A stretch of 64,000 nucleotides of DNA from Patescibacteria group bacterium (GTDB lineage Bacteria; Patescibacteriota; Microgenomatia; UBA8517). The stretch lies in assembly GCA_035291665.1 (NCBI GenBank), contig DATDRP010000003.1, positions 84,549 to 148,548 of the forward strand, written 5' to 3'. A program made the position numbers and the translations under genes. Shown here in pieces: positions 4,093 through 61,791 of this stretch (position 1 is the stretch's first letter; the number at the start of each line of letters is the position of its first letter). The notes under the pieces were generated by a model that was not told the DNA's origin, searched no databases, and saw only the letters and a program-made list of their open reading frames with translations.

Positions 4093-4227
4093 TAGTGCAG
4101 TCCCGCACTTTCGCCCCTTCGACGCAAACACGCAATATTTGGGAGAAGGTAAGAATAGTGCTGGAACCAGCGCGGGCTCTCATATGAGCACTGCTGGCAT
4201 ATAAACTTTGAACTTGATCTGGCCATG
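4093..4227 (-). other. Upstream mimic ORF: divergent, synonymously recoded copy of radA codons 1-21 (MARSSSKFICQQCSYESPRWF) that reads through element A and stops 17 nt before the genuine radA ATG
   Basis: Reverse-complement translation from ATG (4224-4226) gives MARSSSKFICQQCSYESPRWFQHYSYLLPNIACLRRRGESAGLH*; radA itself begins MAKSSSIYVCQQCSYESYRWF; first 19 nt after the ATG are identical, then codons differ synonymously (CAA CAA TGT TCT TAC GAA vs CAG CAG TGC TCA TAT GAG). Confidence 0.6.
4098..4170. ncRNA. Copy A of a conserved ~75-nt structured element (core CCCCTTCGACGCAAACACGYARTATTTGGGAGAAGGYAAGAAYAGTGC), 22 nt upstream of the radA ATG; strand of action undetermined
   Basis: Near-identical cores at 4098-4170, 18847-18917 and 61652-61722; enclosing stems; compensatory change CCTTC/GAAGG (A,B) vs CCATC/GATGG (C). 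Confidence 0.55.
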
Positions 4228-6304: not shown

Positions 6305-7417
6305 TTATTTATATCCCACCGGCTTAGCGGTAAGTACCATACCTAAGGACATTTTCTTATTTTCCGCATCAATATCTTCTACGATTATATTAACCTTATC
6401 ACCTTCTGACAAACTCGTTCCCGGAGGAATCTTCGTGATGTGAATAAGGCCTTCAATACCCTCTTCCAACTTAATAAACATGCCAAAATCCGTCCTGCGG
6501 ACGACTGTCCCCTGGTGTTTGGAATCTTTTACATATTTCGCTCCGGCTTTTTTCCATGGGTCATCTTTTGCCTGTTTCATCGAAAGAGATAGTTTTCCGT
6601 CACTTACTCCCAGCACCTTGACCTTAATCACATCTCCTTCGAATACAATATCCCTGACGCTTTGGACTTTGCTCCATGATAACTCCGATATGTGAACCAA
6701 ACCTTCAACTTTGACTTTTTGCTTTGCATCGATATCGACTTCGACTTCAACAAAGCATCCGAAATTTGCGATTTGCATTACCCGTCCGTCATAAACATCT
6801 CCATCTTTGATCATTTCGAGTGCCTTTCTGATTAGTTTAATATCTTCCGCGTCCGATACCTCTTTCTCGGAAAAAACTATTTTGTTGTCCGATCTGTCCA
6901 AATCTATAACCAATACTTTAAGCGGTCTTCCGACCAGTGAACCCGGATTTTTGATTGAAGACTTGCCAATTTGAGTTGTTGGAATAAATCCATGCACTCC
7001 TTCAAAATCCACATTTAAACCTGCTCCTGAAGCTGATTTGGGTAAAACAAACAACGGTTTTCGATTTTTGAAAGCATCTTTCAAAACCAGCCACACAGAA
7101 TCCTGCATAGCCTGGCGAAGCGAAAGAATAGTTAATCCATCAGGTGTTTCTCCAACAATAATAGTCGCCTCAACCGTATCTCCAACTTTGAGGTTTTTGA
7201 TGTAGTCGCGTGCTTCCTGGAATGCCTTTTCGGCAACAATTCCTTCCCCTTTTCCTCCAATATCCAAAACCAGTCTTTTATTTTCTTTGACAATTACGGT
7301 ACCGGTCACCTTCTCACCACGAATAAGAGTCCGCTTTTTATTTCCATACATTGCAAGAACTTCCTCCATTGAGGATGGGGCTTTTTTAGATTTTGTTGAA
7401 GTTTTCGGTTCGTCCAC
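6305..7417 (-). CDS. rpsA: 30S ribosomal protein S1 (short form, ~4 S1 domains)
   Basis: Repeated S1-domain signatures (GxV, FGxFV, GLxHISE...). Confidence 0.85.
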   Translation of the reverse strand: MDEPKTSTKSKKAPSSMEEVLAMYGNKKRTLIRGEKVTGTVIVKENKRLVLDIGGKGEGIVAEKAFQEARDYIKNLKVGDTVEATIIVGETPDGLTILSLRQAMQDSVWLVLKDAFKNRKPLFVLPKSASGAGLNVDFEGVHGFIPTTQIGKSSIKNPGSLVGRPLKVLVIDLDRSDNKIVFSEKEVSDAEDIKLIRKALEMIKDGDVYDGRVMQIANFGCFVEVEVDIDAKQKVKVEGLVHISELSWSKVQSVRDIVFEGDVIKVKVLGVSDGKLSLSMKQAKDDPWKKAGAKYVKDSKHQGTVVRRTDFGMFIKLEEGIEGLIHITKIPPGTSLSEGDKVNIIVEDIDAENKKMSLGMVLTAKPVGYK

Positions 7418-8422: not shown

Positions 8423-8530
8423 AATATCTTCAAAATTGATAATTGTCCATTCAAACCATTTTAAATGTTAAATTGCAACTTTTTATTGCTCTTTATAAAT
8501 TCAAGGAGAAAGGACGACTCTCGTGCTTAG

Positions 8531-8669: not shown

Positions 8670-8790
8670 AGAAAAATGTCTTATTGACTGATTCGGTTAA
8701 GGTTAGCTTAACTCCTTACGGAGCTTCCACATCCTTCCGAACAACCTGGTATTCTTCCAGGAGTCTATAATGAACCCTAATCTTGGAGGG

Positions 8791-8823
<33 letters not shown>

Positions 8824-8954
8824 CTTAGGAATATAGCTACCCGGCTTTGCGGCTGACGCCACAACCGGCACACCAGAGATTCCTCCAGCCTGGTCCTCTC
8901 GTACTGAGGCCAGCTCTCCTCAAGGTTCTACGATTCCACCGGATAGAGTCCGAC

Positions 8955-9342
8955 ATATAGTATGTCAATACTTCGCATGTTTTTATTTCCGAACGATTTT
9001 TCGGAACTCACGATCGCTCGTGAGATCAGACTATATCTTGTACGTTCAGTTTAAATGAACGTACTCTGACGTATAGTCGTTGAGGATTCTACGTTCAGTT
9101 TAAATGAACGTAGCCTTTCCTGCTGATTGTCCGCACCTGTTGCTTTTTTACCCTGAACGACCAATATAAGTCGAACGGGTAGCACAGGATACAACGGAGT
9201 TCCCAGCAAATAGTCAAATTTATACTCGACTGGTCGAGTCCTATAATGATAACAGTTCTCTTTACTGATTGTTCAAATCAGAAGGTTCAAAAACGTGTTA
9301 TAGGAAGACAGCTCATGTCATTCCGATATGTTATCGAAATCA
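8955..9342 (-). mobile_element. ~390-nt ORF-less insertion at the 23S L2593-equivalent site (GACAGU|UCGG); candidate group I intron
   Basis: Flanking exon sequences align to E. coli 2585-2600 with ~390 extra nt between; 5' exon ends in U and the insert ends in G; contains modular hairpins (ACGTTCAGTTTAAATGAACGT twice). Confidence 0.45.
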
Positions 9343-9862
9343 ACTGTCTTACGACGTTCTGAACCCAGCTCACGTACCGCTTTAATGGGCGAACAGACCA
9401 ACCCTTGGCACCTTCTTCAGCGCCAGGATGCGATGAGCCGACATCGAGGTAGCGATCCGCGCCGTCGCTATGGACGCTCGGGCGCGACTACTCTGTTATC
9501 CCCGGGGTAGCTTTTATCCGTTAAGCTCCGTGCCTACCATGAGGCAATCGGAGGATCACTAAAACCTGCTTTCGCACTAGTTCGAGCCGTCGCTCTCACT
9601 ATCAAGCTGGCTTCTGCTTTTGCACATTGAAGTACGATGTCCATCCGTACTAAGCCAACCTTTGTGCCCTTGCGTTACTCTTTGGCAAGGTACCGCCCCA
9701 GTAAAACTGCCCACCTGACACTTTTCCTTCCGCCGTATCCAGGCGGAATAGGTAAGCCTCACATTTTCAAAAGAGTGGTATTACACTGTTCCCCGCAAAA
9801 TAAATCTGCGGGGTCCCACCTATTCTACACAATTCAAAAATATGAAAAGCAATGTCAAGCTG

Positions 9863-9893
<31 letters not shown>

Positions 9894-10025
9894 GTGGAAT
9901 TAGGCCGCGTCTTCACAGCCACCGCAATTTCGCCGAGTAGAGGCTCGAGACAGTTATTAACTCGTGACGCCGTTCATGCAGGTCGGAACTTACCCGACAA
10001 GGGGCTTCGCTCAAAACCTTATGAA

Positions 10026-10705
10026 AATCATCGTTGAGTTTTGGACTATATCTTCTCCGATTTGATCGGAGTTCGACGTATAGTCTCTGAGGATTCTAAA
10101 ACAGACTGGTTTCTTTTTTTTCTTGTATTCATTGTCTCGATAATATTGATAATTTTATTTATTCCATTTTTTGTTAAATGAGTTTTATTTTTCATTAACA
10201 AAAGTATTTTAGAAAATTTACTGAAATCATCTTTTTTAGAAGTTTTCAACTTATTTTCCTCAAAAAAAGGAATAATTATATCAAAAAGTTCCTTCTGAGA
10301 CTTCACACAATATCGAAAAAGATCTTCTCTGTGATTATCGTGTCTTCTGTTGACCGAAATTCTACCACATTTAAAAAATTTCATTACCGTAAATAATACG
10401 TTCTTACTTTTTTCTCCTTGCGATAAAACAAACTCGGGCATAATCTGATAACCCAGAGATGTAGTTGGATTCTTATGTAGGGTTACTGTAAAACAACCCT
10501 CTCCGTCTACAAATCCAACAATCCAGCCAATAAATTTTAGTCTTTCCTGCTGATTATCTTTACTGAATGCTTTTTCACTTGGTATCATCTACAGTATGAT
10601 GTTACCTTAGTAGCTTCAGATTAACAAGATTTTCCAGCATATAGTCGAATTTTACTACGGCAGTTTTGTATTGCCCTTACCGTAGAACAGTTATAGTTAC
10701 TGCTG
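10026..10705 (-). mobile_element. Group I intron at the 23S L1917-equivalent site carrying a LAGLIDADG homing endonuclease ORF
   Basis: Exon junction ...CUAUAACUGUUCUA | intron | AAGGUUUUGAGCGAAGCCCCUUGUCGGG corresponds to E. coli CCUA|AGGUAGCGAAAUUCCUUGUCGGG; ORF inside on the same strand. Confidence 0.7.
10046..10588 (-). CDS. LAGLIDADG-family homing endonuclease (single-motif type)
   Basis: IGWIVGFVDGEGCF matches the LAGLIDADG motif; located inside the rRNA intron. Confidence 0.85.
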   Translation of the reverse strand: MIPSEKAFSKDNQQERLKFIGWIVGFVDGEGCFTVTLHKNPTTSLGYQIMPEFVLSQGEKSKNVLFTVMKFFKCGRISVNRRHDNHREDLFRYCVKSQKELFDIIIPFFEENKLKTSKKDDFSKFSKILLLMKNKTHLTKNGINKIINIIETMNTRKKRNQSVLESSETIRRTPIKSEKI

Positions 10706-11200
10706 CCGTTTACCGGAGCTTTGCTTCACCCCATAAGATATCGCTTGCGCGATACCAAACAGGGATCCGTTTAACTTACCGGCACTGGGCAGGCGTCAGC
10801 CCGTATACTTCGCTTTTCAGCTTTGCACGGACCTGTGTTTTTGATAAACAGTCGGTTAATAAACTTTCGCTGCAACCCCGATTAAATCGGGGCAACCCAT
10901 CTCCCTAAGTTACGGGTAGTTTTTTTGCCGAATTCCTTAAGCCTCTTTCTCTCGCTCGCCTTACTATACTCTAGTAACCCACCTGTGTTGGTTTTGGTAC
11001 GGCTTACCTTGAATCTCACTGCGAATCTTTTCTCGTAGACAGAAATGTATGGAATAGTCCAAGTAAACTTAAACTCTGCATAACTCATCGATTAATCGTT
11101 TCAGCGGATTTCCCAACTGATACTATCTATAAGCTTGCACCCCACTTCACGAAGGGGCTCCAATTTTCCTATCCAGTCAATCCCCAGTTACTCATACGCT

Positions 11201-11340
11201 GCGCGAGAATTTTTAATTTACAATTTAAAATTTATATTGAATTTCTAATGACTTAATGTACTTAATTAAAAAATCGGGTCAATGAAAATTGAATAAAAAT
11301 TAAAAACTACATAACTAAAAATTCTTGTGCAACGTACAAG
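11201..11340. repeat. AT-rich repeat family copy 2, inside the 23S (E. coli ~1500 region)
   Basis: Aligned to copies 1 and 3; terminal hairpin CTTGTGCAACGTACAAG. Confidence 0.8.
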
Positions 11341-11707
11341 TTTGGCGATTCAAGACAAATACAGGAATTTTAACCTGTCATCCATCGACTACCCCCGCCC
11401 CTTTTTTGACAATAGCTTACGGAAATTTCATCTTTGGAAGGCGAAACGCCTCAAATTGTGTTGAGCCGTTTTCGGCTTCCGGGGTACGAAAATCCATTAA
11501 ACATTATCGAAAAAGGGGCGGGGCTTGCCTTAGGTGCCGACTAACCCGTCGAGGACGAACCTCGCGACGGAATCCTTGGGTATTTGGCGGACCAGATTCT
11601 CACTGGTCTAGTGCGCTACTCATACCGGCATTCTCACTCCCATTCGCTCCACCCAACTTTACAGTTGAACTTCACAGCAAATGGAACGCTCCCCTACCAC
11701 ACTCGCT

Positions 11708-11872
11708 CGCAGTTCGAGAAAATTCAAATGATAAATATCAAATGACAAATCAATCACAAATAACAAAACTTTAAAAGAGAAAATAATTTAAATTCTTTTG
11801 TCCTCTTTTTAATTTTGAGTTTGAATTGAATTTTGTGATTTGAGTTTTGAATTTCCTTGTACTGCGAACAAG
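11708..11872. repeat. Hairpin intervening-sequence family copy a, at 23S helix 45 (GCAGUACAAGG...CGAACUGCG arms)
   Basis: ~165-nt long inverted repeat inserted where E. coli has helix 45 (GCGGCAGCGACGC...); near-identical copy at 12499-12663. Confidence 0.75.
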
Positions 11873-11936
11873 CATCTCTGGCTTCGGTATTATCTTTAAT
11901 CCTCGATTAATTTTCGGCGCCTACTTCCATCGACCA

Positions 11937-11993
<57 letters not shown>

Positions 11994-12498
11994 TTATGGA
12001 AATAAACTTCCTTTGAAACTTAAGATAAATTTAGAGACCTTAGCCGAAAGTCTGGGTTGTTTCCCTTTACCCGCATCAGCTTAGCCCGATGCGAGTGTCT
12101 AGCGTGATAATGTACACCGTTATTCGGAGTTTGGTTGAGTGAACTTGGTTGCCCTCGTCCACCCATTCAGTAGCTCTACCATCGGTAACACCTTACACGC
12201 CACGGTCCCTATAGACCTTTCGGGGAGAACCAGCTATCTCCAGGTTCGTTTGGCATATTACCCCTATCCACAAGTCATCCCAAGTCATTGCAACGACAAC
12301 GGGTTCGGGCCTCCTCCCGACTTTCGTCGGGATTCACCCTGCTCATGGCTAGATCACCTGGTTTCGGGTCTTATCTCACATTCAAAATCGCGCTATTAAC
12401 ACTTGGTTTCCCTACGCCTCCCCCCGCAAAGCGGGGTTAGACAAGAATATAAGATAAACTCGCCGGTTCATTCTTCAATAGGCACGATATCACTCGCA

Positions 12499-12663
12499 CG
12501 CAGTTCGAGAAAATTCAAATGATAAATATCAAATGACAAATCAATCACAAATAACAAAACTTTAAAAGAGAAAATAATTTAAATTCTTTTGTCCTCTTTG
12601 TAATTTTGAGTTTGAATTGAATTTTGTGATTTGAGTTTTGAATTTCCTTGTACTACGTACAAG
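12499..12663. repeat. Hairpin intervening-sequence family copy b, at 23S helix 25
   Basis: Inserted after GAACCUGAAAC...CUUGUACGUAGUACAAGG, the helix-25 position; ~95% identical to copy a. Confidence 0.75.
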
Positions 12664-12728
12664 CTCTATCGGTTTGTCCGCAAACAGTTTCAGGTTCTAT
12701 TTCACTGGGCGTCCCGCCCTTCTTTTCG

Positions 12729-12760
<32 letters not shown>

Positions 12761-12952
12761 TTCTGCTTATATTTAGCCTTGGAAGATGGTTCTCCCAGAT
12801 TCCCACGAAGATGTCGATCGTGGTACTTAGGAAATCCCTAGAGTCATTTTTCATTTCGTATACAAGACTATCACTTTCTATGGTCGGCAATTCCATGCCG
12901 TTCTACTATGAAAAATGATCCCACATTGGGCTCCTGCAACCCCCTGCACTCT

Positions 12953-13090
12953 GCGCGAGAATTTCTAATTTACAATTTAAAATTTCTAATTAATTTCTAA
13001 TGACTTAATGTACTTAATAAAAAATCGGGTCAATGAAAATTGAATAAAAATTAAAAACTACATAACTAAAAATTCTTGTGCAAAGCACAA
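12953..13090. repeat. AT-rich repeat family copy 3, inside 23S domain I (after GUAGCGGCGAGCGAA)
   Basis: Aligned to copies 1 and 2. Confidence 0.8.
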
Positions 13091-13101
13091 GGTTTAGGCT
13101 T

Positions 13102-13132
<31 letters not shown>

Positions 13133-13810
13133 ATTTCCCCCGCTGAGCGGGGGTTGTTTTCTTTTCCTTCGGGTACTTAGATGTTTCAGTTTCCCGAGTC
13201 TCCTCCGAAAGAGCTATGTGCTTCGCACAAGGTGGCCTACAGCTATTTGACTACAGACTACAGGAAAAACTGTGACTGTAGACTGTTGACTGTAAGCAAA
13301 CTTATGCGAAGCGCTTTTACTCTTTGGTCCTCCGTTATGAGACGGAGTGGGTTTCCCCATTCGGACACCGCCGGGTCACAGGATCGTGGCTCCTATCCGA
13401 CGATTATCGCAGCCTTGCGCGTCCTTCTTAGGTAAGCAAAACCAAGGCATCCACTGTTCGCGTTAGTAAAGACATTTACCTCGTGTATAAACACGAGGAT
13501 TTTGGCCTTTCTCCTTAAATTTTTAAAGAGCAAATTAACTTGTTAATTTGCGATGTATCCGCCAACAAACGCCCCTTAAGTCGTGTTCGAACAGAACTAA
13601 AAGACTTAAGGTAAGTTGCGGCGGAAAAGAGCACTGTTTCAAAAAAGAAACAGCTTCTATCTCTCGCAAATCTGTTAATGTTCATCTCTTTAGTATCTGA
13701 AAGATGGTGACTCGCGGTTTAAAATATTATCCAAACCGCCAATCACCATTTCTCAAATGTCAAAGTCTTCCTTATACTCTTCTACTCTCACGCTCTTACA
13801 CTCTAAATTA

Positions 13811-14971: not shown

Positions 14972-15091
14972 ATGAAACTGTAAATGCAGTATATCAATAT
15001 AGAAGATTTTAACATGTAATTTTGATTGTTAATTAGCCTTATTTGTGGTAAATTAGTGGTTGTTCCGAAATTCTTTTTCTATGATTTATTG

Positions 15092-15150
15092 GGCGCGTGG
15101 CTCAGTGTCCGATCAAGTCGGCGACATGTCTAAGAGCGCGTTCCTGATGA
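15092..15150 (+). pseudogene. tRNA 5' half-fragment X (GGGCGCGUGGCUCAGUG, 23-nt insert in the D-loop, anticodon arm CGUUC-CUGAUGA); outer shell of a nested tRNA locus
   Basis: Identical first 17 nt to tRNA-Ile at 15242; matching 3' half at 15421-15470 (same CGTTC stem, ...CGCGCCC-U-CCA). Confidence 0.5.
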
Positions 15151-15164
15151 CAGAAATTATTTTG

Positions 15165-15203
15165 GGCTGCTAGTTCATTGGTAGAACGCTTTATTGATGA
15201 CGC
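15165..15203 (+). pseudogene. tRNA 5' half-fragment Y (GGGCUGC-UA-GUUC-AUUGGUA-GAAC-G-CUUUA-UUGAUGA)
   Basis: Acceptor strand GGGCTGC pairs with GCAGCCC of the 3' fragment at 15340-15372. Confidence 0.45.
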
Positions 15204-15241
15204 AAATAATAATTTGCGACATATTGAAAATTGAAAACGAG

Positions 15242-15313
15242 GGCGCGTGGCTCAGTGGTAGAGCGCCTTCCTGATAAGAAGGAGGTCCTAGGTTCGATCC
15301 CTAGCGCGCCCAC
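15242..15313 (+). tRNA. tRNA-Ile (anticodon GAU), intact, 72 nt
   Basis: GGGCGCG-UG-GCUC-AGUGGUA-GAGC-G-CCUUC-CUGAUAA-GAAGG-AGGUC-CUAGG-UUCGAUC-CCUAG-CGCGCCC-A. Confidence 0.85.
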
Positions 15314-15339
15314 AAAGTTCTCAATTTTCACTATAAGAA

Positions 15340-15372
15340 AGAAGTGCTAGGTTCGATTCCTAGGCAGCCCAC
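15340..15372 (+). pseudogene. tRNA 3' half-fragment Y (T-arm CUAGG-UUCGAUU-CCUAG + GCAGCCC-A)
   Basis: Complements fragment Y 5' acceptor strand. Confidence 0.45.
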
Positions 15373-15420
15373 AAGTTTCTGACATATCGAACGTTTTTGA
15401 AGCTGAAAGCTTCAAAGTCC

Positions 15421-15470
15421 GTTCGTTATAAGAACGAGGTCCAAGGTTCGATCCCTAGCGCGCCCTCCAC
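15421..15470 (+). pseudogene. tRNA 3' half-fragment X (anticodon arm CGUUC-GUUAUAA-GAACG, T-arm, CGCGCCC-U-CCA with encoded CCA)
   Basis: Nearly identical to the 3' half of tRNA-Ile; together with 15092-15139 would give a complete Ile-like tRNA (anticodon UAU). Confidence 0.5.
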
Positions 15471-15479
15471 AGATTACTT

Positions 15480-15650
15480 ACAACTAAAAACTTAAGGCTA
15501 ATTACACCCACTACTCACTTCTCACTACCCACATCTCACTACTCATTTCCTATCTCTTACCGCCTACATCCTACAATCAATCGCCTACTCCCACTTCCCA
15601 CTACTCACTTCTCATTACTTAATATCTTAAAATCCTTCATATATAATGAA
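15480..15650. repeat. G-depleted low-complexity tract (CTACTCAC / CCTACAAC motifs) upstream of the ATPase gene
   Basis: 170 nt with essentially no G on the plus strand. Confidence 0.8.
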
Positions 15651-15653
15651 GTT

Positions 15654-17771
15654 ATGCTTAAAACATTTGTTTTGAAAGTTCCAAGAGAGAATGTCGAAAC
15701 CCCCGAAGCAACACAAACTTTTTTATCAGCGCTTACCACGCTTAATCCGACAAGTACTCTTGAAAAATTACTTATAAAAAACCAAAAAGCTCTTGCTCTC
15801 GAAATTGTGCTTCAAAACCAGCAAATTACATTCAGGGTGGTTTGTGATTCTGAATTTGAACATCTGGTTACCACACAAATCCAGTCAAACTATCCGCTTT
15901 GTGTCATTCAGAATGCTGAAAATGAAATTTCCTTTGAAGACCTGACTCTGACAAAGGTTAACTTGAGGTTTGGTAATTTTTACCCGATTCAAACTTATGC
16001 TTCTTTCCGGGATTTGGATCCAATGTCGTCATTTTTATCGCTTCTTTCAAAGGCAACACCGAATGACGTCGTAATCATTCAATACGCTCTTGAGGCAGCT
16101 GGATCTTCCTGGCAGGCGAAAGGTAAAAACTTTGCTCTTTCAGGAGCCAAAAAAGCTGATGGGTCATTTGGTCCCAGACCCGACCAAAATGTCGTTAACG
16201 AAAAGATATCATTCCAAGGATTCAAAGTATCCATTCGGATAGCATCTAATTCGAAAACAACTCAAAAAGAACTTGCATCCGTGTATGATATTTTTAACCG
16301 CCCCGACGGCAATAGTTTTCGATCTTCATCCGTCATCAGGCTTTTTTTCAAAAAAGAAATGGCAAAATTCAAGAACCGGCTTTGCAGTGATTCTCAAATC
16401 CTTAACACTCCGGAGTTGGCAACGCTATGGCACTTGCCCGGTGAAAAAATAAAAGCCCCCTTAATTTCCTGGGGTTCAACAGTTTTATCAGAACCACCGG
16501 AAAATCTTCCGGTTGCAAAAATCATGTCCGATGAAGAAAAATCCCATGTCAACTTTTTTGCAAAAACACAGTTTAAGAATGAAGAGAGCATTTTCGGAAT
16601 CAAAGACAAGGATAGGCTTCGTCATGTCTGGACTGTCGGAAAAACCGGAACCGGAAAATCAACAATGATTGCCAACATGGCAATCGATGACATAAAAAAA
16701 GGGCGTGGAGTTGCGGTTATTGATCCGCACGGAGATCTTTGTGATGACATACTGGATTACATTCCCAGCTCCCGTATAAATGACACAATTTATTTCAATC
16801 CGGCTGACCGCGAATTTCCAATCGCACTCAATCCTCTTGAAGTAACAAATAAAGAAGAGGCGGAATTGGTTGTATCCGGACTGATGAGTATCTTTACCCG
16901 AGTATGGGCTAATGTTTGGTCTGCAAGAATGGAATATATTCTCCGTAACTCATTCATGACTTTGGCAGAAATCCCCGACTCGACGTTGGAGGACGTACTC
17001 CACTTGTTGGCGAATCAGACTTTCCGAAACAGAGTTCTTTCAAAAGTAAAAGACGACGCTATCGTAAAATTCTGGAAAGACGAGTTCGATCAAATGCCGG
17101 AAACATTACAAAAAGAAGCGATTGCACCAATCCAAAATAAAGTCGGACAATTTGTAACATCGCCTTTAATGAGAAGAATCCTTTCAAAACCAAAGTCCGC
17201 CATTTCGATTGACGACATCATGAATAACGGAAAAATATTTTTGGCCAATCTTTCCCAAGGCCGTCTCGGTGAAGACAACTCGGCGCTTCTGGGTGCAACA
17301 CTTATCACAAAAATTCAAGTTTCCGCAATGAGACGTGTGGACATTCCGAAAGATGACCGCCGGCCGTTTTACTTGTACGTTGATGAGTTTCAGAACTTCG
17401 CCACCGATTCATTCATCCGAATTCTATCAGAAGCAAGAAAATACGGATTGGCTCTGACTTTGGCTAATCAATATATGGCGCAAATTCCTCCCAACATACA
17501 AAAAGCAATTCTCGGAAACGCGGGAACTCTGGTTGCTTTCACAATCGGCGCAGAAGATGCCCAAATTGTACATCGGGAATTTGCCGAGGTGTTTTCGCAA
17601 AACGATTTGGTTAATTTGAAAAACTATCAAATTGCAGTGAAACTAATGGTCGATGCCCATTCAACCAGGCCCTTCTTTGCCTATACATTGCCTCTTCCCG
17701 CGCAGAGTAACCAAAACCGCCCCAAAGTGATTGCAGTTTCCCGGGAAAGGTGGGGAAAAAAATCGACGTAA
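15654..17771 (+). CDS. P-loop NTPase of the HerA/FtsK/VirB4 clade (DUF87-like), 705 aa, with ~300-aa N-terminal domain of unknown function
   Basis: VGKTGTGKST Walker A; AVIDPHGD (HerA/VirB4-like); LYVDEFQNF Walker B; no SD upstream. Confidence 0.6.
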   Translation: MLKTFVLKVPRENVETPEATQTFLSALTTLNPTSTLEKLLIKNQKALALEIVLQNQQITFRVVCDSEFEHLVTTQIQSNYPLCVIQNAENEISFEDLTLTKVNLRFGNFYPIQTYASFRDLDPMSSFLSLLSKATPNDVVIIQYALEAAGSSWQAKGKNFALSGAKKADGSFGPRPDQNVVNEKISFQGFKVSIRIASNSKTTQKELASVYDIFNRPDGNSFRSSSVIRLFFKKEMAKFKNRLCSDSQILNTPELATLWHLPGEKIKAPLISWGSTVLSEPPENLPVAKIMSDEEKSHVNFFAKTQFKNEESIFGIKDKDRLRHVWTVGKTGTGKSTMIANMAIDDIKKGRGVAVIDPHGDLCDDILDYIPSSRINDTIYFNPADREFPIALNPLEVTNKEEAELVVSGLMSIFTRVWANVWSARMEYILRNSFMTLAEIPDSTLEDVLHLLANQTFRNRVLSKVKDDAIVKFWKDEFDQMPETLQKEAIAPIQNKVGQFVTSPLMRRILSKPKSAISIDDIMNNGKIFLANLSQGRLGEDNSALLGATLITKIQVSAMRRVDIPKDDRRPFYLYVDEFQNFATDSFIRILSEARKYGLALTLANQYMAQIPPNIQKAILGNAGTLVAFTIGAEDAQIVHREFAEVFSQNDLVNLKNYQIAVKLMVDAHSTRPFFAYTLPLPAQSNQNRPKVIAVSRERWGKKST

Positions 17772-17779
17772 GTTGATTT

Positions 17780-17930
17780 TTTTGATAAAAGTACATATTT
17801 CTCTATTTTCTTTATTCTAAACTACTTAATTACTTAAACCCCGTATTTCCCAATACTCACATCCCACTTCCCACAACTCAATTTCTATCTCTTACCCTAC
17901 AACCTACTTCTTACAACCTAACATCGTTTT
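17780..17930. repeat. G-depleted low-complexity tract (CCCTACAACCTAC motifs) followed by its C-depleted mirror at 17990-18050
   Basis: Composition and motif reading. Confidence 0.8.
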
Positions 17931-18046
17931 CACCGGTACATTTAGACCTATAATAACGAACACTATTCTCCCCCATTAGCTTGTGAAAAGAATGTGAAAG
18001 ATGAATAGTTGTAGGTTGTACGATGTAGGAGGTAGGATAAGATATA

Positions 18047-18400
18047 GTGAGAATTACAAAACTTGATGATTTGGTTATATATCAGGAGTCAATCTTACTT
18101 ACTAAGGAAGTATTTACACTTTGTAAATGTCCCAAGCTCAAGACTGAATATAGCCTCCAAGATCAAATAAAACGAGCGTGCGTTTCTGTGTCTGCCAATA
18201 TTGCTGAAGGCTACGGTAGACGTACCAAGGCCGACTTTTCTCAGTTCTTATCAATCTCGCTAGGCTCATGCAATGAAGCGATAGCCTTACTGGACGTCAT
18301 TAAATTAAATTTTCCCACACTGGAAACTACAGAGCTAAAAGGAAAATATCAGATATTAAGTAAAAGGATTTATTCATTCCGCAGTTATCAAATTAAATAA
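18047..18400 (+). CDS. Four-helix-bundle protein of the type normally encoded inside 23S rRNA intervening sequences (TIGR02436-like)
   Basis: Matches this family's typical motifs: ...ACVSVSANIAEGYGRRTKADFSQFLSISLGSCNEAIALL...; 117 aa. Confidence 0.7.
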   Translation: MRITKLDDLVIYQESILLTKEVFTLCKCPKLKTEYSLQDQIKRACVSVSANIAEGYGRRTKADFSQFLSISLGSCNEAIALLDVIKLNFPTLETTELKGKYQILSKRIYSFRSYQIK

Positions 18401-18440
18401 ATATTTTCCACCTACAACTTACAACTTACTTCTTACCGCC

Positions 18441-18474
18441 ATGTCAAGTTTTTTGAACACAAAAAACTTGACAT
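18441..18474. promoter_or_regulatory. Perfect 14-bp-arm palindrome ATGTCAAGTTTTTT-GAACAC-AAAAAACTTGACAT overlapping the -35 of the promoter below (candidate operator)
   Basis: Direct reading. Confidence 0.6.
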
Positions 18475-18496
18475 TTAGCACTTCGTTTGATATACT
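18468..18496 (+). promoter_or_regulatory. Consensus sigma-70-type promoter TTGACA-N17-TATACT
   Basis: TTGACA 18468-18473, 17-nt spacer, TATACT 18491-18496. Confidence 0.6.
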
Positions 18497-18502
18497 GCTA
18501 GC

Positions 18503-18697
18503 TATCCTATAGAAATGTAGGGTAATGCTTTAGAGGTGAAAATTAGTTGTGAGTAGTGAGTAGTTGCTCACATCTCATAACCCACAACCCATAACTAATA
18601 TTGTTATTGTATTAATTAATATAATAACTTGTCGGCTTTAAGTCGAGTTAGACTCGACAAGTTTTTAAGCCGCGACCTTTAAAGTCGCGGCTTTTTT
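18503..18697 (+). ncRNA. Candidate small RNA (~195 nt): consensus promoter to intrinsic terminator, no ORF of 60 aa or more, several internal hairpins
   Basis: Promoter at 18468-18496; terminator GCCGCGAC-CTTTAAA-GTCGCGGC-TTTTTT at 18669-18697; internal hairpins CTTGTCG...CGACAAG and GTGAG...CTCAC. Confidence 0.4.
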
Positions 18698-18747
18698 ATT
18701 GCTCTTTTATAAAAATAGTGATAACTCAATAACCCTCCGATAAATCT

Positions 18748-18805
18748 TGGCACGAGGCGTATACGAATAGTATTGAAAAGCCGAATGCTAAAAACAGTAG
18801 GGTGT
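18748..18805. promoter_or_regulatory. Conserved ~55-nt element TTGGCACGAGGCGTRTAYGAATARTAYTGAAAARCC (second copy at 54631-54690); promoter-like
   Basis: ~75% identity between the two copies; the 54631 copy lies 20-60 nt upstream of the start of the minus-strand gene 54261..54599. Confidence 0.35.
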
Positions 18806-18846
18806 TGAGTACCTTAAAAAATTTATTTTAATACCCGCTGAATTTT

Positions 18847-18917
18847 TGCATTGCGACAGTCCCGCACTTTTGCCCCTTCGACGCAAACAGGTAGTATTTG
18901 GGAGAAGGCAAGAACAG
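18847..18917. ncRNA. Copy B of the structured ~75-nt element (no downstream minus-strand gene; carries a 41-codon ORF MFFNLYSSPGTVLAFSQILPVCVEGAKVRDCRNAKIQRVLK)
   Basis: Core alignment with copies A and C; outer stem GTCCCGCACT / AGTGCCGGGAGAC. Confidence 0.5.
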
Positions 18918-20553
18918 TGCCGGGAGACGAGTAAAGATTGAAGAACATTTTCGCGATTAGTGAAAGGTAGCCAGTTGACCGCCTTGAGCGGATTTCAACT
19001 TGCTGCCTTCCACTGGTCACGAGGACCAGTGTCTTTTGTTTAAGACGAGGGGAAGCAGGAAGTAAGCAGTAAGAAGTAAGGAATAAGCAATAGCGCATAT
19101 CACCTACAACCTACCGCTTACGACTTACAACCCATTTGTTCTTTAACAACTTTGCTGTTTACCACGTTCAATTTATTTGAGCGTGGATATAATTAAGGAA
19201 AAAGGAACCCTATTATATTTTTTCGATCGCGAGGACTACGGTTCTCGCGTCACGGAAGTAGTATAACGGGGTAAGAAAAGGGAATCCGCAATATCTTAAA
19301 TAATAAGGTATGTGCGGGATACCGGGGTTAGATAGTTTTTTAAAAAGACTTCTAACAGGACATGGGGTTAAATGATATATATAGATAGTCTCCTTTTTTC
19401 AAATGTCCCCTATTAATGGAGGGAACAGAGACCGTAATTATTTGCGGTTTCTTTTCCCTTCATTTTTTTGGGGCTAAAGTCCTTGGAGTTTTTTTGTTTT
19501 GGTTTAAGGCTTCGCCTTAGGCCACGTTTTTTGAATGCTGAAACATGCGATATAGTCGATTGAAGACTACGGTCTTTGTCGATACAAAAATATCAAAATG
19601 TTTTACCAGCTGTAATTCTAAATCCTTAAAAATTTAGAAGTTGGATAACCTTCAAAAAACAAAAACGAAAACAGAACCAATATGAAATTTATATTGGCGA
19701 AGTCCCGTACCGAATTTATTCTGGTGCGTGGAAAAACTTCAAAAGATTGCATCGCAAAGGATTATTATCCTGAGCGAAGACAAGTTTGACTTGTTGCAGT
19801 CGAAGGACTTCCTTTATTTCGGTTAGCCTGCTTTGCGAGCACTTCTCCTTTAAAAAGAGATTTATCAACTGAAACCAAAGGCACCCAGGATGGCGATAAA
19901 ATTCCTACTTGTAGAAGTTCGCACCCGCTTCGCGACACGCATTTCCGAGTTCTTTTCTTCCGTAAACCCGAGAAGAATCGAAATCTTATGCGCGATAAGA
20001 AGAAAAAGTAAATCGAGCAATCGATTAAAAGGCCTTCTTTTTATGACAAGGAAAACTGCGGGGGTATAAGACCTATCAAAATCTTATATTCAATCCGTAC
20101 CAGTCATTTGGGATTGTGACCCAACAAGGCAACAACTCAGGGATCAATCGCAACCAAGCTCAGCTTGGTAATCCTGTTTTGTATCAAAACCACTACGGTT
20201 AGATACGAAGAGATCTCGCATTTATACATGTTAAATGTGTAGAAATCGGGAAAAGCGAAAATCCAGCTCAGCTGGAGTACTTATCTTAAGTACGCGGAAA
20301 CTGGACAAGCGTTTTTTGTTTTTGCTTTGAAGAGACTTCTTCTTTTCTTCTTTATAAACAGAGAGTTTCCGGTGCACCCAACAAAGGTGTCATCCGCAAG
20401 CTACGAAGCTTGATTATAGAAACTGATATGTAGGATATCGGAGAGAAAGAAAAGAATTGGAGAAGTAGGAACGGAAGACGGCATTCAGGAGATGCGGAAA
20501 AATTTTATCAATCAGGTGTAGTTTTACCTGAATTCAGAAAAAAGGAGAATGTT

Positions 20554-20734: not shown

Positions 20735-20836
20735 ATGTACAACGTAAGGCGAATCTTTATTTATATCATTGCTGTCGTGGCTGCTGTTTTAATTATTGCC
20801 ATTGCAGCAACAATTCTACTTTCTGGAGGATTCTAA
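20735..20836 (+). CDS. 33-aa single-helix membrane peptide, SD AGGAGGAG, stop overlaps the next start (TAATG)
   Basis: MYNVRRIFIYIIAVVAAVLIIAIAATILLSGGF. Confidence 0.4.
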   Translation: MYNVRRIFIYIIAVVAAVLIIAIAATILLSGGF

Positions 20837-23079
20837 TGTACCACACGCGGCGCAACCGCAAAAACCTGATGAAGCTTTTCAGCTACGTCATGGTGTTCGT
20901 TCTAATTGTTACATCTTTTCAAACCGCCTTTGCCGGCAACGGCGAGGGAGATGGTGGAGACAACGGAAATGGTAAATCGGAAACGGCACCTGGACAGGTG
21001 AAAAAAGAAGGCGCTGTTGAAGTACCTGCCGCTTCGGTTGTTCAAGAAGGCCAAACTGTTGTCGTTCAACCTGAGGTCGTTTTGACTCAGGAACCAAAAG
21101 TGGTTCAATCCAGTGAAGTTCAGTCCAATACTAATTCCGAAGACTACGGGCAGAAGAAAAACGAAGGTCACAAGGTGCCAGTTTGCCATGTTCCGAAGGG
21201 AAACCCTTCCAACGCTCACGTCATAATCATAGACGAGAATGGTTGGAAAGATGGGACAAATCCCGGTGGCCATCAAGACGGTGGACATGGAGGCGATTAT
21301 TTGCTTCCTGGACCTGTAGAAAATTACAAAGCAGGTGAAAAATGTTCACCCCCTGAACCGCCCAAGGTTTGCAAGCTGACCAGTGATTGGGTAGTAGTTT
21401 CTCGCTCAGATTGGCAGTGGGATTCAGAAAAGGGAGATTATTTCCAAACAGTTACATACAAAAAGTACGACCAAAAAGACAGTTCTCAAGAATGTGATTC
21501 GAAGACTGAAACCGTTTGGAAGGGTTACTCCCCATGTGACGAGCAAACCGCTTGGACCAACTGGAATGTTATCTTGGACTGGACAAATGATCCTATCCAA
21601 AATGACCTCTACCGGAGACTCGAGCGATATACGTTCGACGCGCATGATTCTAGCCAAGTTTGCCTGAAAGAAACCAAGACTGAGCGGAAGTCCAAACCTG
21701 AGGAACCCAATATTCCAGAATCGCCTGAAACACCCAACGACAGTAAAGACATGCCAAGAAGCGTATGTATTCAGCGCGAAATTGTTTCAGAACAAAGAGT
21801 TGACCTGGAAACAGGGTTCAGCTCAATTATTCACTGGTTCGTTGATCGTATCAATATGGTGTTATACGGCGAAACATCCGTAACGGTCAATCAACCTAAT
21901 TCGTTGAATTCGCACTCCAGCATCAACCCCGTAACAGGATGCGAAGAAGTTTATGGCCACGCCGAGAATACCGAGCTTTATCAGCTCTGGATACATTCAA
22001 TTGACGGGTCAAATCCTCGTCCAATTAAAAACCAGGGTGAAGTAATTCACGGTAACGAAGCTGACTGGGGCATGTCAAATTTGATCGCTTACGTAGCGCC
22101 AAACGGTTACTTAAAAGTAACCGATGAAAAAGGAAGTTTTATCGATTCCTTTGTCGGCGAAGACACCAAGAGTTTCATGGCCAGCAATCCCGATTGGTCA
22201 CCAGATGGCAAGTATATCGCTTACACAAACAGTGATGACTCTCTTACCGTCATGCCTTACCCTTACGAAGGTAAAGGAACCAAATCCAACATCGAGTGCG
22301 CTCCACTTCGTTGGGAAGCGGATCAGTCAGGAATCAATTGTTTCCAGAAAGAAGCTGGTTGGGTACTAGTAAAATTTCCTTCATTGGAAGTACAACCAGT
22401 CGCATCTTGGATCAGTGACATGGTTCCCGACCCGGAAGGTGGCAACGCAGTTGTTGTAGTCAACATATCAGATCAGATGTACTTCGTTCCTGATATCAGT
22501 TCAGTTGAGAATTCAACGTTGCGTAGTGCACTACCAGACATGAAAGCTGTGTCCATCGAAGCAGAAGATGTAGTAGTTCAGGATTTGAACCCAGATTGGT
22601 ACTCCCCCAATAAGGTTGTACCTGAAAGTCTGGATTTTGACCAGGTCCGAGTATCGGCGCATGAGCTGGAAGCTGACAAGCCGTCAGAAGTTAACATAAT
22701 CGTAGATAAAGACCAATATATTGGGGAATTAGAAGACAATTTGGTCTTTGTTGTCGGTGAAAACCAAGGCTTGAAAGAGCAAAACGATCTGCTGAATAAG
22801 CAGGTTGAAAATCTTGAGAAGCAGAATGAGCTCTTGAAGGCAGAGGTAGATTCTCTGAAAGACGGCAACACCGACGTCGCGCTGACATCAGCAAGTTTGG
22901 CTGGTAAGTCTGTTTCAAACCAGGGTTGGTTAGTTGCTCTGTTGTTCGGGGTGATTTGTTGCATGGGTATTTTCATCTATGGGATGTTCAAGGGATATGT
23001 TCTCATCTCCCAACCCAATGCCCAACCCCAGTCTCAGAACCAGAGTACCAAGCCAGTAACCGATAAAACAAAGCCGTGA
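20836..23079 (+). CDS. 747-aa extracytoplasmic protein: N-terminal signal/anchor, TolB-like beta-propeller-type repeats, coiled coil, C-terminal TM anchor; acidic Q/P/E-rich N-region
   Basis: N-terminal hydrophobic helix; DWSPDGKYIAYTNSDDSLTV-type repeat; LKEQNDLLNKQVENLEKQNELLKAEVDSLK coiled coil; LVALLFGVICCMGIFIYGMF TM. Confidence 0.5.
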   Translation: MYHTRRNRKNLMKLFSYVMVFVLIVTSFQTAFAGNGEGDGGDNGNGKSETAPGQVKKEGAVEVPAASVVQEGQTVVVQPEVVLTQEPKVVQSSEVQSNTNSEDYGQKKNEGHKVPVCHVPKGNPSNAHVIIIDENGWKDGTNPGGHQDGGHGGDYLLPGPVENYKAGEKCSPPEPPKVCKLTSDWVVVSRSDWQWDSEKGDYFQTVTYKKYDQKDSSQECDSKTETVWKGYSPCDEQTAWTNWNVILDWTNDPIQNDLYRRLERYTFDAHDSSQVCLKETKTERKSKPEEPNIPESPETPNDSKDMPRSVCIQREIVSEQRVDLETGFSSIIHWFVDRINMVLYGETSVTVNQPNSLNSHSSINPVTGCEEVYGHAENTELYQLWIHSIDGSNPRPIKNQGEVIHGNEADWGMSNLIAYVAPNGYLKVTDEKGSFIDSFVGEDTKSFMASNPDWSPDGKYIAYTNSDDSLTVMPYPYEGKGTKSNIECAPLRWEADQSGINCFQKEAGWVLVKFPSLEVQPVASWISDMVPDPEGGNAVVVVNISDQMYFVPDISSVENSTLRSALPDMKAVSIEAEDVVVQDLNPDWYSPNKVVPESLDFDQVRVSAHELEADKPSEVNIIVDKDQYIGELEDNLVFVVGENQGLKEQNDLLNKQVENLEKQNELLKAEVDSLKDGNTDVALTSASLAGKSVSNQGWLVALLFGVICCMGIFIYGMFKGYVLISQPNAQPQSQNQSTKPVTDKTKP

Positions 23080-23125: not shown

Positions 23126-24905
23126 GCGGGATCCTCCCCTCTCCCTTTCCTTCTTTCTTTCCTTAGGGATCAGATAATCACGTAAATTATTATTTATTAA
23201 AAAAACGTGATTGGACAAGAACAGTAAATTTTTATCAACTGTTACTTACCTACTCAGCTACGGCTGAATAATTTGATTTTTTCCATGAGCAAGTCTTGTG
23301 GAAAATATAATTTCGACACTCTGTAGTTTCGTGCTACGGAAACGATTTTATGCCCAACGGATTGAAAGTTGGAAAGGTTGAGAGTGGGAGGACCTGCGGG
23401 TTCGTACCAATATTTCTTAAACCAGATACCATTCGGTACCTGGCTACTTTTTCCTAATTCCCTCCAGTGCATATTCTTGCACGGAGTAAACCCCTTATTC
23501 GAGTCAAACTCGAGGAATCAACCTGATTACCGGTTGATAAGGGAAGGTTTATTCAAGTTCAACTTGAATAAACATAGACTTTCTTCCGCGGAAGAAGTTT
23601 GGAGAGCCATTGGCCCTTCAGATCACTCTTTCCGGATGAAAGCAGCAATAAAAAGGTATTGTGTGGAAATTTTGGGAAACCAAAATTTCAGATTCTGAAT
23701 TTATTCAGGATGACAAACACACAACAACCTTCTCTACTTTTTTTAATTTTGTCTACGGACAATATTAAAAAATCCCAAAAGGAATTTAACCGAAAGGTTA
23801 AATGTAGAGAAAAAGCGATAAGACTTATGCAAATTCTGCATAAGTCTTTGAAGTCAGGTGCCATATGGTACCTGACAGGTGATTTAGTTGTTGTTTTTGA
23901 GCATGGTGATTGAATCTCCAAAGAGATTCTTTCATTAAATCGAGTCCAACTTGATACCGCCCAAATAACAAATAAACTTTAATCACATTCAGATATCCTC
24001 GTGGTATCTGATCCCCCTTCGCTCTTACGAGCTACGAAGGGAAAAAACGTTTCCCATCCTCCTTCGTTCTGCACAGCAGAACTTTGGAAGGATACAATCG
24101 GCAACAACTTGCCGGTAGCAAATATTAAGCAATTGCTACATGGCGGGTTGCGCCATAGGGTATAACGAAGGGGCCTACTAGTTTGGTTTTTTCAAGATGG
24201 AGTGCCAAAGCTGGCGCTCAATATGACACCCGAGTAAGACTCGGACACAATCATACACATCTCGAAAAACAAATAAACTAGCAGGCCCCAAAAACAAAAA
24301 AACTTACAAGGCAAGTTAGAGAATGGAGAAAAGAGAAGAGTTCAAAGTTAGTATTAAATTGGTAGATAGTAGATTGTAGATCTTATATGGGGATAAAAAT
24401 CCTTCCCTATATTTCATATACCGTATGCTATAAACCAATTGTGTTACTTATTAGTCAGCAAAGTTCTTTAAAAATTTATTATTTAGTACAAAGCGAAAAG
24501 CGAAGAGAAAAAAGTTTTTAAGAAGTTAGTTTGAAACGCTTAATTCTTTATTCTATATACTAATTATAGTGTTCGAAAGCGTGGGGGTTAATCCCGTTAA
24601 TAAACCTCTAAAGCAACCACCCAGCTCAGCTGGGTAGGTAGGAAATTTTCGGTTCTCCCGGGGAATATCCAGGAAAGCCAAAATTTGAGATTGCCCCCAC
24701 ACTTTTGAACATAAAAATAGTGATTAGTGCAATGCTTGCAAGGACTGTCCTTGTACGCTGTGTATAGTAATTACTCATAACTCACCACTCATAACACACT
24801 TCTTATAACTTATCCCTCACCCCTACAACCAATCGCTTATTTCATATTGTTTTCGACAAAGAGTCTCCCAGTCACAAACCCGGAATTCATAATTAATCCC
24901 ATGAC

Positions 24906-27181: not shown

Positions 27182-28822
<1,641 letters not shown>

Positions 28823-29112
28823 GTGACGGTTCTAATTAATAAAAATTAGATCCATCTAATCACTCCCAGTCATATTTTAATTTTCGAATCAGTTGTTAAA
28901 GTGCGAGATCTTAACAAACAAAAGAAGCCGCCCAGACGGCGGCTTTGTAGCCTTAAAGATTAATCTTCGTCTGGTCAACCGCTTCTCATCTTTTCCTTTC
29001 ACAAACCAACAAATTGATTTGTAATGTGTATTATATCAAATTTTGCAAATTGTTCAACGAATCGGTTTGTGGGATTGGAAATGAACCGGGGGTATGTTAA
29101 CATTGCGCCGCT

Positions 29113-54599: not shown

Positions 54600-54702
54600 A
54601 AATTATCACCACCCCTCGCCCGCCGATCAATTTTGGCACGAGGCGTGTATGAATAATACTGAAAAACCAAGTGCGAAAATAAGGCGGGTTCGCTCTTCTA
54701 CT

Positions 54703-61647: not shown

Positions 61648-61791
61648 TTAGCCCCGAACAATCACCCCATCGACGCAAACACGTAGTATTTGGGAGATGG
61701 CAAGATCTGTGCGGGGCCCGTTATCTTCCCCATTCGATACCGGTGATGGTTGATATAACTTTTTCAAATCATCGAGATCAAAAATCTTCAT
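61648..61791 (-). other. Upstream mimic ORF: 47 codons MKIFDLDDLKKLYQPSPVSNGEDNGPRTDLAISQILRVCVDGVIVRG; its first ~26 residues are a diverged copy of the Nnr N-terminus (MKTFDKNELHKLFKPKNNSLGEQNGQ); reads through element C and stops 17 nt before the nnr ATG
   Basis: Codon-by-codon reverse-complement translation from ATG 61789-61791; 14/26 identities with the downstream gene's N-terminus. Confidence 0.55.
61652..61722. ncRNA. Copy C of the structured ~75-nt element, 22 nt upstream of the nnr ATG
   Basis: Core ...CCCCATCGACGCAAACACGTAGTATTTGGGAGATGGCAAGATCTGTGCGGGGC; outer stem GCCCCG/CGGGGC; CCATC/GATGG covaries with CCTTC/GAAGG of copies A and B. Confidence 0.55.

Follow-up and report, generated by a model that had tools for sequence, protein, structure and literature searches.

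A conserved promoter-terminator unit of Woesebacteria with the architecture of a terminator switch

What purpose is served by a strong promoter that is followed by an intrinsic terminator and by no gene? The question is raised by positions 18441-18697 of a 64,000-nucleotide (nt) stretch of a patescibacterial genome (the window), whose host belongs to Candidatus Woesebacteria within the Microgenomates of the candidate phyla radiation (CPR). An earlier note on this DNA had proposed that the promoter, a palindromic operator and the terminator delimit a gene for a small RNA (sRNA) of about 195 nt. Part of that proposal stands: the unit is non-coding, conserved, and equipped with its own promoter and terminator. 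Its reading as a free-standing sRNA is disfavored here relative to that of an attenuator leader. Taken together, the unit represents a conserved and hitherto undescribed element of non-coding RNA in CPR bacteria, built like a terminator switch. The best explanation, which we place at about an even chance, is a conserved transcription-attenuation leader resembling those of rrn operons, in which a 12-nt motif (M) captures the loop of the terminator (T1) as the RNA is being made.

The unit was defined by a BLAST comparison of the intergenic region with 80 related loci (given L numbers here), followed by reading of the individual loci and a motif search. By BLAST, the closest relative (L009) is colinear with the intergenic region, and L010 and L016 are similar in the promoter-proximal part. 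The unit occurs in the window and 12 other genomes (L009-L016, L030, L040, L045 and L078). A scan of metagenome contigs for the promoter-plus-M pattern returned many chance matches, from which genuine units were picked by hand on the context of T1, boxA-like boxes and a dispersed element A described below; these are 11 further units on independent contigs, for a total of 24. Conservation in related genomes, which the earlier note had named as a check, therefore extends to at least 23 related Woesebacteria sequences. The order of parts is TTGAC(A/T)-17-TATnnT, often a 5' hairpin of GNRA type, M, from zero to several hairpins that cannot be aligned between relatives, and T1. The promoter consensus TTGAC(A/T)-17-TAT(A/T)(A/G/C/T)T is kept in 12 genome loci and 11 metagenome loci, and it is this conservation in 23 other sequences that makes the promoter significant, since its match to the consensus by itself is not. 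M conforms to (A/U)UGCUUUAGAGG, with six distinct 12-mers among the 20 units printed. From the inferred transcription start site (TSS) to the U-tract of T1, the units measure between 48 nt (L030) and 260 nt (L009), and every one of the 24 has a GC-rich terminator stem followed by U6-U8.

An Rfam scan, also suggested earlier, returned no match to any Rfam 15 family at the gathering threshold in 18441-18830. At permissive E-values there were just sub-threshold matches driven by the terminator, such as asX2, whose 30.9 bits fall short of the gathering score of 70. No family was matched in the flanking non-coding regions, and ten related loci gave rRNA, tRNA and intron matches only. The literature on RNA-based regulation and non-coding RNAs in CPR bacteria, Patescibacteria or Woesebacteria yielded nothing relevant, and nothing on the unit. 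As a separate observation, a second M-containing unit lies downstream of the first in L107, L016 (about 7160-7200), L014 (about 9040-9110) and L159; among loci with second units, a boxA (GAUCUUUAACAA or CUCUUUAACAA) directly precedes M in three cases.

The evidence for a switch lies in the relationship between M and the loop of T1. In the window, a segment of T1 termed M' (ACCUUUAAAGU, 18675-18685) can form 11 base pairs with M, including two G-U pairs, at -13.0 kcal/mol. Complementarity to M recurs in every unit and takes in the whole 7-9-nt loop and 1-3 nt of each arm. A terminator was detected in 12 of the 13 genome-derived units (the window and 12 loci), and their predicted duplexes lie between -8.7 and -17.3 kcal/mol, as compared with a mean of -5.1 (standard deviation 2.6) for 481 other terminator-like hairpin loops in the same loci, 0.4% of which reach -13 or below. 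Among the metagenome units, values of -15.3, -12.0, -12.4, -13.1, -13.5, -14.6 and -15.2 were obtained, plus three weaker ones. The stem of T1 varies without such constraint: G-C and C-G replace one another at every position, and the inner stem takes 16 forms in 23 units. Its innermost C-G pair belongs to M' and is retained in 22 of 23. Where M varies, the loop follows, as in L009 (M GCUUUAGAGAG with loop CUUUCUAAAGC), and in L123 the register of pairing is shifted (UAGAGGAGC:GCUCCUCUA).

Because the complement of M takes up the entire loop and the ends of both arms, full pairing with M excludes a complete T1 stem. If folding of each RNA is stopped where the T1 loop ends, M is predicted to pair with the loop region over at least 8 bp in 22 of the 24 units, and over 11 bp in the window. 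The same prefix test was applied to 470 control terminators; a 15-nt window anywhere upstream pairs with the loop region over at least 8 bp in 12.8% of them, and over at least 10 bp in 3.4%. Folding of the complete RNAs puts the terminator and the M:loop helix at nearly equal energy: the minimum free energy (MFE) structure has T1 formed in 14 of 24 units, and the M:loop helix remains in about 10. As modeled, this is a two-state terminator/antiterminator signature. The unit thereby shares with attenuators a terminator in an untranslated leader behind a promoter and a conserved helix that is mutually exclusive with it; a sensor and a coherent regulated gene are missing, with no conserved domain beyond the 12-mer and no conserved ORF. 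M is nearly invariant even though its partner tolerates wobble pairs and shifts of register, which suggests that M is also read by something else in a sequence-specific manner.

Two other identities for M were considered and set aside. The rRNA leaders of this lineage carry a canonical boxA of the GCACUUUAACAA type and no M, so M is not boxA under another guise. Neither is it an rRNA mimic or complement, as no copy of GCUUUAGAG with up to one mismatch is present in the 16S or 23S genes. Against the 3' tail of 16S rRNA, inspection by eye gives a generic match of 4-6 nt of the Shine-Dalgarno (SD) kind.

The same design is found elsewhere in the window, in the leaders of its own rRNA genes. Both the 16S leader (29057-28895, minus strand; promoter about 29057-29030) and the 23S leader (14220-13925, minus strand; promoter 14220-14191) consist of a promoter, about 100 nt, a GC-rich hairpin with a U-run, and then boxA (GCACUUUAACAA for 16S and CUUACUUUAACAA, also compared as GUACCUUACUUUAACAA, for tRNA-Ala/23S). 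In each rRNA leader, moreover, the loop of the hairpin has its complement in a segment further upstream. In the 16S leader of the window the pairing is CCAGACG:CGUCUGG, and in that of L015 (about 13940-13790, minus strand) it is CAGAUGG:CCAUCUG, indicating covariation; in the 23S leader of the window, UGCGAAUGGG pairs with CCUAUACGCG. As rRNA must be read through such hairpins, the likeness argues that T1 is a conditional and not an obligatory terminator. The plus strand downstream of the unit has no rRNA or tRNA gene.

Further conserved modules follow T1 on the same strand. Element A, a dispersed structured repeat paralogous to a module in the tRNA-Ala/23S leader, comes next in the window, L009, L014, L015, L123 and L159. 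Boxes of the form G(C/U)AC(A/C)UUAAAA follow T1 in at least 14 of the 24 units with 1-3 mismatches to the 16S boxA of the lineage; for rough orientation, a match is found in 1% of random windows of 220 nt at a cut-off (at most two mismatches) that is stricter than the one applied to the units (at most three). We infer from its sequence that the box after T1 would act as a boxA. Ordered plus-strand modules are shared with L009 at 69-77% identity, an order that neutral DNA should have lost, and they count as evidence for transcription of this strand. Conservation in the 2.4-kb region free of open reading frames (ORFs) peaks at 19470-19694 (L009 4884-5121), at 77% identity; this stretch is probably a non-coding element, since the 30-aa ORF of the window is not kept in frame in L009. 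Between the unit and the gene of a 747-aa protein at 20836, ORFs do not exceed 91 aa; only two homologues of this protein were matched, neither annotated. At most loci the next plus-strand gene likewise encodes a secreted protein, and these proteins are mutually non-homologous. A scan found no further plus-strand promoter of at least 9/12 between 18500 and 21000.

These features can be combined into a mechanism. The strong promoter would fire at about 18503, and the nascent RNA would bear the optional 5' hairpin followed by M in single-stranded form. As the 5' arm and loop of T1 emerge, M would pair with the loop and closing base pairs over 8-12 bp. The resulting helix could delay or prevent T1, allowing RNA polymerase to continue through the boxA-like boxes and a long untranslated region into the secreted-protein gene. 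A putative trans factor occupying M would let T1 form, and a short RNA (about 195 nt here, 48-260 nt in relatives) would be released. Read-through and its regulation are the putative steps of this scheme, in which the RNA of about 195 nt would be the terminated product of a leader and not necessarily a trans-acting sRNA.

M has a second copy nearby. A conserved structure of about 140 nt on the opposite strand (the distal element, Table 1) holds a sense-identical M (UUGCUUUAGAGG, 24616-24605, minus strand) within a multiloop; read on the plus strand, this copy becomes a hairpin loop complementary to M. Such convergent pairs are also present in L009, L010, L012, L014, L015, L023, L030, L040, L045, L146 and L168, with 130 bp (L030) to 6.1 kb (window) between the two copies. 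A search for targets complementary to M in the 64-kb window found the T1 loop and the copy at 24605-24616 in the convergent element, and no others. The distal element has no Rfam match. Either of its strands may be the one transcribed, as the predicted energies of the two orientations contradict each other between clades: the clade of the window keeps a U-G pair on the minus strand that is a C-A mismatch on the plus strand, whereas in L030, L040, L045, L146 and L168 the element folds far better in the plus orientation. The distal element could serve as a second partner for M or as a processing stalk, or could be a separate RNA bound by the same factor. A more general and more tentative proposal, which we consider doubtful, is that Woesebacteria use a previously undescribed loop-capture mode of antitermination, common to the 16S and 23S leaders and the unit; in the unit, M would be the invariant capturing strand, would occur in two or more convergent RNAs at each locus, and would be recognized by a dedicated trans factor.

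Table 1. Features of the window that bear on the unit.
Feature	Position	Strand	Remarks
Perfect palindrome, 15-nt arms, 4-nt loop	18441-18455 / 18460-18474		3' arm includes the -35
Sigma-70-type promoter, TTGACA-17-TATACT, TGn extended -10	18468-18496	+	TSS inferred at about 18503
5'-terminal hairpin, UAUCCUAUA-GAAA-UGUAGGGUA	18503-18524	+	GNRA loop, two G-U pairs
Motif M, AUGCUUUAGAGG	18525-18536	+	Nearly invariant 12-mer, proposed anti-terminator strand
Variable hairpin	18546-18581	+	C-free 5' arm, G-free 3' arm (GUGAG / CUCAC type low complexity)
A/U-rich hairpin	18603-18628	+	Part of the variable region
First terminator-like hairpin	18622-18666	+	Weaker; core 18642-18658, then U5
Intrinsic terminator T1, 10-bp stem AAGCCGCGAC/GTCGCGGCTT	18667-18697	+	Loop CUUUAAA, U6
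Element A (..AACCCUCC..UUGGCACGAGGCG..AGGGU..)	18700-18808	+	Dispersed structured repeat
boxA-like box, GUACCUUAAAAAA	18809-18821	+	
Second, near-canonical boxA, GUUCUUUAACAA	19138-19149	+	Kept in L009 as GCUCUUUAACAA
747-aa secreted protein gene	20836-23079	+	Signal peptide, fast-evolving; next same-strand gene
Distal element, about 140 nt, long closing stem GUGUGGGGG...CCCCCACGC	24570-24711	- (convergent)	Conserved structure
23S-rRNA-IVP family gene (PF05635, four-helix bundle), 117 aa	18047-18400	+	Upstream of the unit
23S rRNA gene	8672-13477	-	Carries a group I intron and insertions
16S rRNA gene	27182-28823	-	
G-free tracts	17856-17925, 18405-18441, 18567-18598, 19100-19140, 7780-7500 (-), 15640-15500		

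Within the window, a folding energy of -67.2 kcal/mol is predicted for the 197-nt RNA (z = -7.8 relative to shuffled sequences), which is strongly structured; hairpins between promoter and terminator had been noticed before. The 5' hairpin shows compensatory changes, being AUCCUGUA-GUAA-UACAGGAU in L009, ACUCUAG-GAUA-CUAGAGU in L010 and CCUG-GAAA-CAGG in L045, and is missing from the minimal units L030 and L078. Hairpins analogous to the variable one, of GUAAG/CUUAC type and unalignable, occur in L009, L011, L100, L112, L159, L196 and L203 and are lacking in the minimal units. T1 was recognized correctly at the outset, with a stem spanning 18667-18693 and T6 at 18692-18697; the weaker hairpin directly upstream makes the arrangement tandem. 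A segment of that weaker hairpin, GGCUUUAAG at 18634-18642, is also complementary to M, and in the full-length MFE structure M is paired with it. Nor does the unit appear to encode a protein, in agreement with the earlier note. The longest ORF inside it has 25 aa (18564-18641) and falls in a segment where relatives do not align, no reading frame is kept across homologues, a finding that the note would have taken as refutation of an RNA gene had it been otherwise, and no consistent start codon follows the SD-like AGAGG in M. A 6S RNA or other housekeeping RNA was likewise rejected, as the fold has multiple hairpins in place of an extended hairpin of about 180 nt with a central bubble, and homologues go down to 48 nt.

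Turning to the promoter, TTGACA (18468-18473), a 17-nt spacer and TATACT (18491-18496) were located as originally described and match the consensus at 11 of 12 positions, with the TG of an extended -10 at 18488-18489. It is not, as had been thought, the only consensus sigma-70 promoter in the window: a scan of the whole window found seven sites that reach 11/12, compared with 2.7 expected from shuffles, one of them being the tRNA-Ala/23S leader promoter (14220-14191, minus strand). Only at the unit promoter do a perfect -35, a spacer of 17 nt and TGn occur together. The palindrome that embeds the -35 is perfect, with arms fully complementary over 15 nt and not the 14 first counted. Its interpretation as an operator is not supported, since the hairpins of relatives, where present at all, differ in sequence and lie at the -35 or upstream of it. 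Across the 24 units no half-site is kept besides the -35 itself. An inverted repeat also embeds the -35 in L100 and L107, and hairpin potential near the -35 reaches z < -2 in 11 of the 24 units. On comparison of these sequences, the palindrome is real but is not a shared operator, because its sequences are not conserved. It could be the 3' hairpin of an upstream transcript.

Several other explanations must be weighed against an attenuation leader. The one nearest to the original proposal, a stand-alone trans-acting sRNA, seems unlikely to us. In such an RNA, T1 would be constitutive, M would be a seed or protein-binding motif, and the M:loop helix would form after release to give a closed, protected shape. 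Its own strong promoter, a canonical U6-U8 terminator in 24 of 24 units and the lack of an ORF would all suit an sRNA, as would a syntenic position that is constant while downstream genes vary, a second M copy in a separate nearby structure that suggests a shared trans partner, and T1 as the MFE state in 14 of the 24 full-length folds. However, nothing but M and the terminator is conserved over lengths of 48-260 nt, and a motif that competes with its own terminator during synthesis would be counter-productive if termination were constitutive. The modules conserved on the same strand after T1, boxA-like boxes included, are left unexplained by an sRNA, and the design is common to rRNA leaders, which must be read through. 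The targets of M found in the 64-kb window are also confined to the T1 loop and the convergent structure. It is the length range, the competition of M with its own terminator, the downstream modules and the rRNA-leader design that favor a conditional leader terminator over an sRNA.

The inverted pair of 12-mers invites two further readings. M could be the boxC-like strand of a long-range stalk in an rrn-like leader, paired with its distal complement so as to bracket 130 nt to 6 kb of cargo for RNase III-type processing or for pairing of the 5' and 3' ends. A boxA followed by a boxC is the order in E. coli rrn leaders, and here boxA immediately precedes M in L012 and in the second units of L016 and L107. 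The pair is found in the window and 11 relatives at widely variable spacing, its two copies change together (GAGAG in L009, GAGA in L030), and the distal structure is better in the plus orientation in L030, L040, L045, L146 and L168. Yet the U-G pair conserved on the minus strand in the clade of the window becomes C-A on the plus strand, the cargo lies now before and now after the distal element, several intrinsic terminators intervene between the two M sites, and the complementarity between M and the T1 loop is left unexplained, making the stalk improbable. The other reading places the action in the DNA, with the palindrome at the -35 as an operator, or with the inverted 12-mers as sites for a repressor or for an invertase that flips the segment and gives phase variation of surface proteins. 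The perfect 15-nt-arm palindrome in the window, the enrichment of repeats able to form hairpins close to the -35 (11 of 24 units at z < -2) and the position of the 12-mers on either side of variable secreted-protein genes are in its favor. We consider it very improbable, however: palindrome sequences differ between genomes, no recombinase or regulator gene is syntenic, 12 bp is short for a recombinase site, and the third complementary copy sits exactly in the terminator loop and covaries with M, which argues for pairing in RNA.

The attenuation leader itself faces several difficulties. Termination and read-through are both predicted, from sequence and folding. Downstream genes are non-homologous between genomes, unlike those of classical attenuators and riboswitches, which have a consistent function, and the gene in the window is 2.1 kb away, behind more terminator-like hairpins. 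T1 is of textbook strength in all units and would also suit the 3' end of a constitutive sRNA. An antiterminator centered on the loop and not on one arm is unusual, and its kinetics are hypothetical. The boxA-like boxes deviate from the 16S boxA of the lineage at 1-3 positions, and no sensor domain is evident in the unit beyond the 12-mer.

The position of the unit is constant, immediately 3' of a gene for a 705-aa T4CP-like protein (15654-17771, plus strand) in the window and 12 other genomes. This protein has orthologues with 50-77% identity in about 80 Woesebacteria or Patescibacteria assemblies, and groundwater metagenomes yield contigs identical to the window. The rRNA genes are split and on the minus strand; they enclose the T4CP-like gene and the unit, which are on the plus strand, a layout common to relatives such as L015. 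In four genomes the 23S-rRNA-IVP gene separates the T4CP-like gene from the unit (the window and, on the minus strand, L011, L014 and L023); its orientation differs among genomes and it is missing from L009, the closest relative, for which reasons it is taken as a mobile or optional insertion outside any rRNA gene. Directly after the stop codon of the T4CP-like gene, a block is kept (GGTACATTT..CCTATAATAACG..GTGAAAAGARTGTGAAA; window 17927-18010, L009 3590-3660, L010 about 8455-8520, L016 about 6390-6470), which in the window forms the loop of an inverted repeat with 36-nt arms (17885-17920 / 18012-18047).

Other repeats are scattered through the region. Copies of element A are found in the window at 14040-13930 (minus strand) and 54605-54690 (plus strand), and in L014, L015, L034, L037, L052, L054, L123 and L159; its closing stem covaries (CCCUCC/GGAGGG, CCCGCC/GGCGGG), and it has no Rfam match. 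A second dispersed element, B (..GACGCAAACAnGUAGUAUUUGGGAG..), is present at 18857-18923, 4098-4164 and 61665-61716 in copies that are 88-90% identical, with a compensatory change of CCUUC/GAAGG to CCAUC/GAUGG; two copies are just upstream of minus-strand gene starts. Long G-free tracts of CUUAC, CCUAC or CAACC type form imperfect hairpins with their C-free complements. One, of ~280 nt, is upstream of an S1-like gene (6305-7417, minus strand), and the pattern YTACAACYTAC is enriched in the window (18 matches against 3.3 expected). A single intact tRNA-Ile gene (15241-15313, plus strand, opposite to the rRNA genes) appears, by eye, to be flanked within 15090-15480 by partial copies of tRNA 3' halves, of which two are downstream (about 15320-15470) and one upstream (about 15090-15160). 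These might be remnants of integration or recombination at the tRNA gene.

With 24 examples, the unit offers a well-delimited conserved RNA element with a testable two-state mechanism and a link to the rRNA-leader architecture of its own host. It might also provide a strong promoter and leader for the expression of surface proteins that evolve fast and are central to the episymbiotic lifestyle of these bacteria. If loop capture were true, a strong expression platform of rrn type would be coupled to a hypervariable surface-protein cassette, amounting to a new class of riboregulator specific to CPR bacteria; if general, it would bear on the control of rRNA transcription in reduced genomes.

Among known systems, attenuators and riboswitch platforms (trp and pyr leaders, the T-box, and PyrR/TRAP/LicT-type systems) resemble the unit in having an intrinsic terminator close to the promoter within an untranslated leader, a conserved segment ahead of it that forms a mutually exclusive helix, and nearly isoenergetic folds. 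The unit differs in placing that helix on the loop and closing pairs and not on one arm; it has no aptamer, leader peptide or tRNA-binding domain, its sole conserved candidate sensor being the 12-mer, and no Rfam match, and its downstream genes fall into no consistent functional class. In Listeria, SreA and SreB are terminated RNAs derived from riboswitches or attenuators that also act in trans. By analogy, an RNA released at the leader terminator could act through its conserved single-stranded motif, which would reconcile the sRNA and leader readings; here, however, the complements of M found in the 64-kb window are limited to the T1 loop and the convergent element, and accumulation of the RNA is hypothetical. 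The put sites of phage HK022 and the EAR element of Bacillus are cis-acting RNAs of processive antitermination. Like the unit, they are structured RNAs that stand just after a strong promoter and ahead of long units containing terminators, but there is no similarity in sequence or structure and no detection by Rfam, and the unit has an explicit helix competing with one specific terminator. The remaining comparison is with the leaders of rRNA operons, which carry nut-like boxB-boxA-boxC antitermination signals served by the NusB/NusE/SuhB system (PMC2800207, PMC4807359). In the unit no rRNA or tRNA follows, the hairpin bears a full U-tract, M is not boxA and binding of Nus factors is putative. 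Common to both are a near-consensus promoter, a hairpin and then a boxA-like box, together with element A, which the unit shares with the 23S leader of its own genome.

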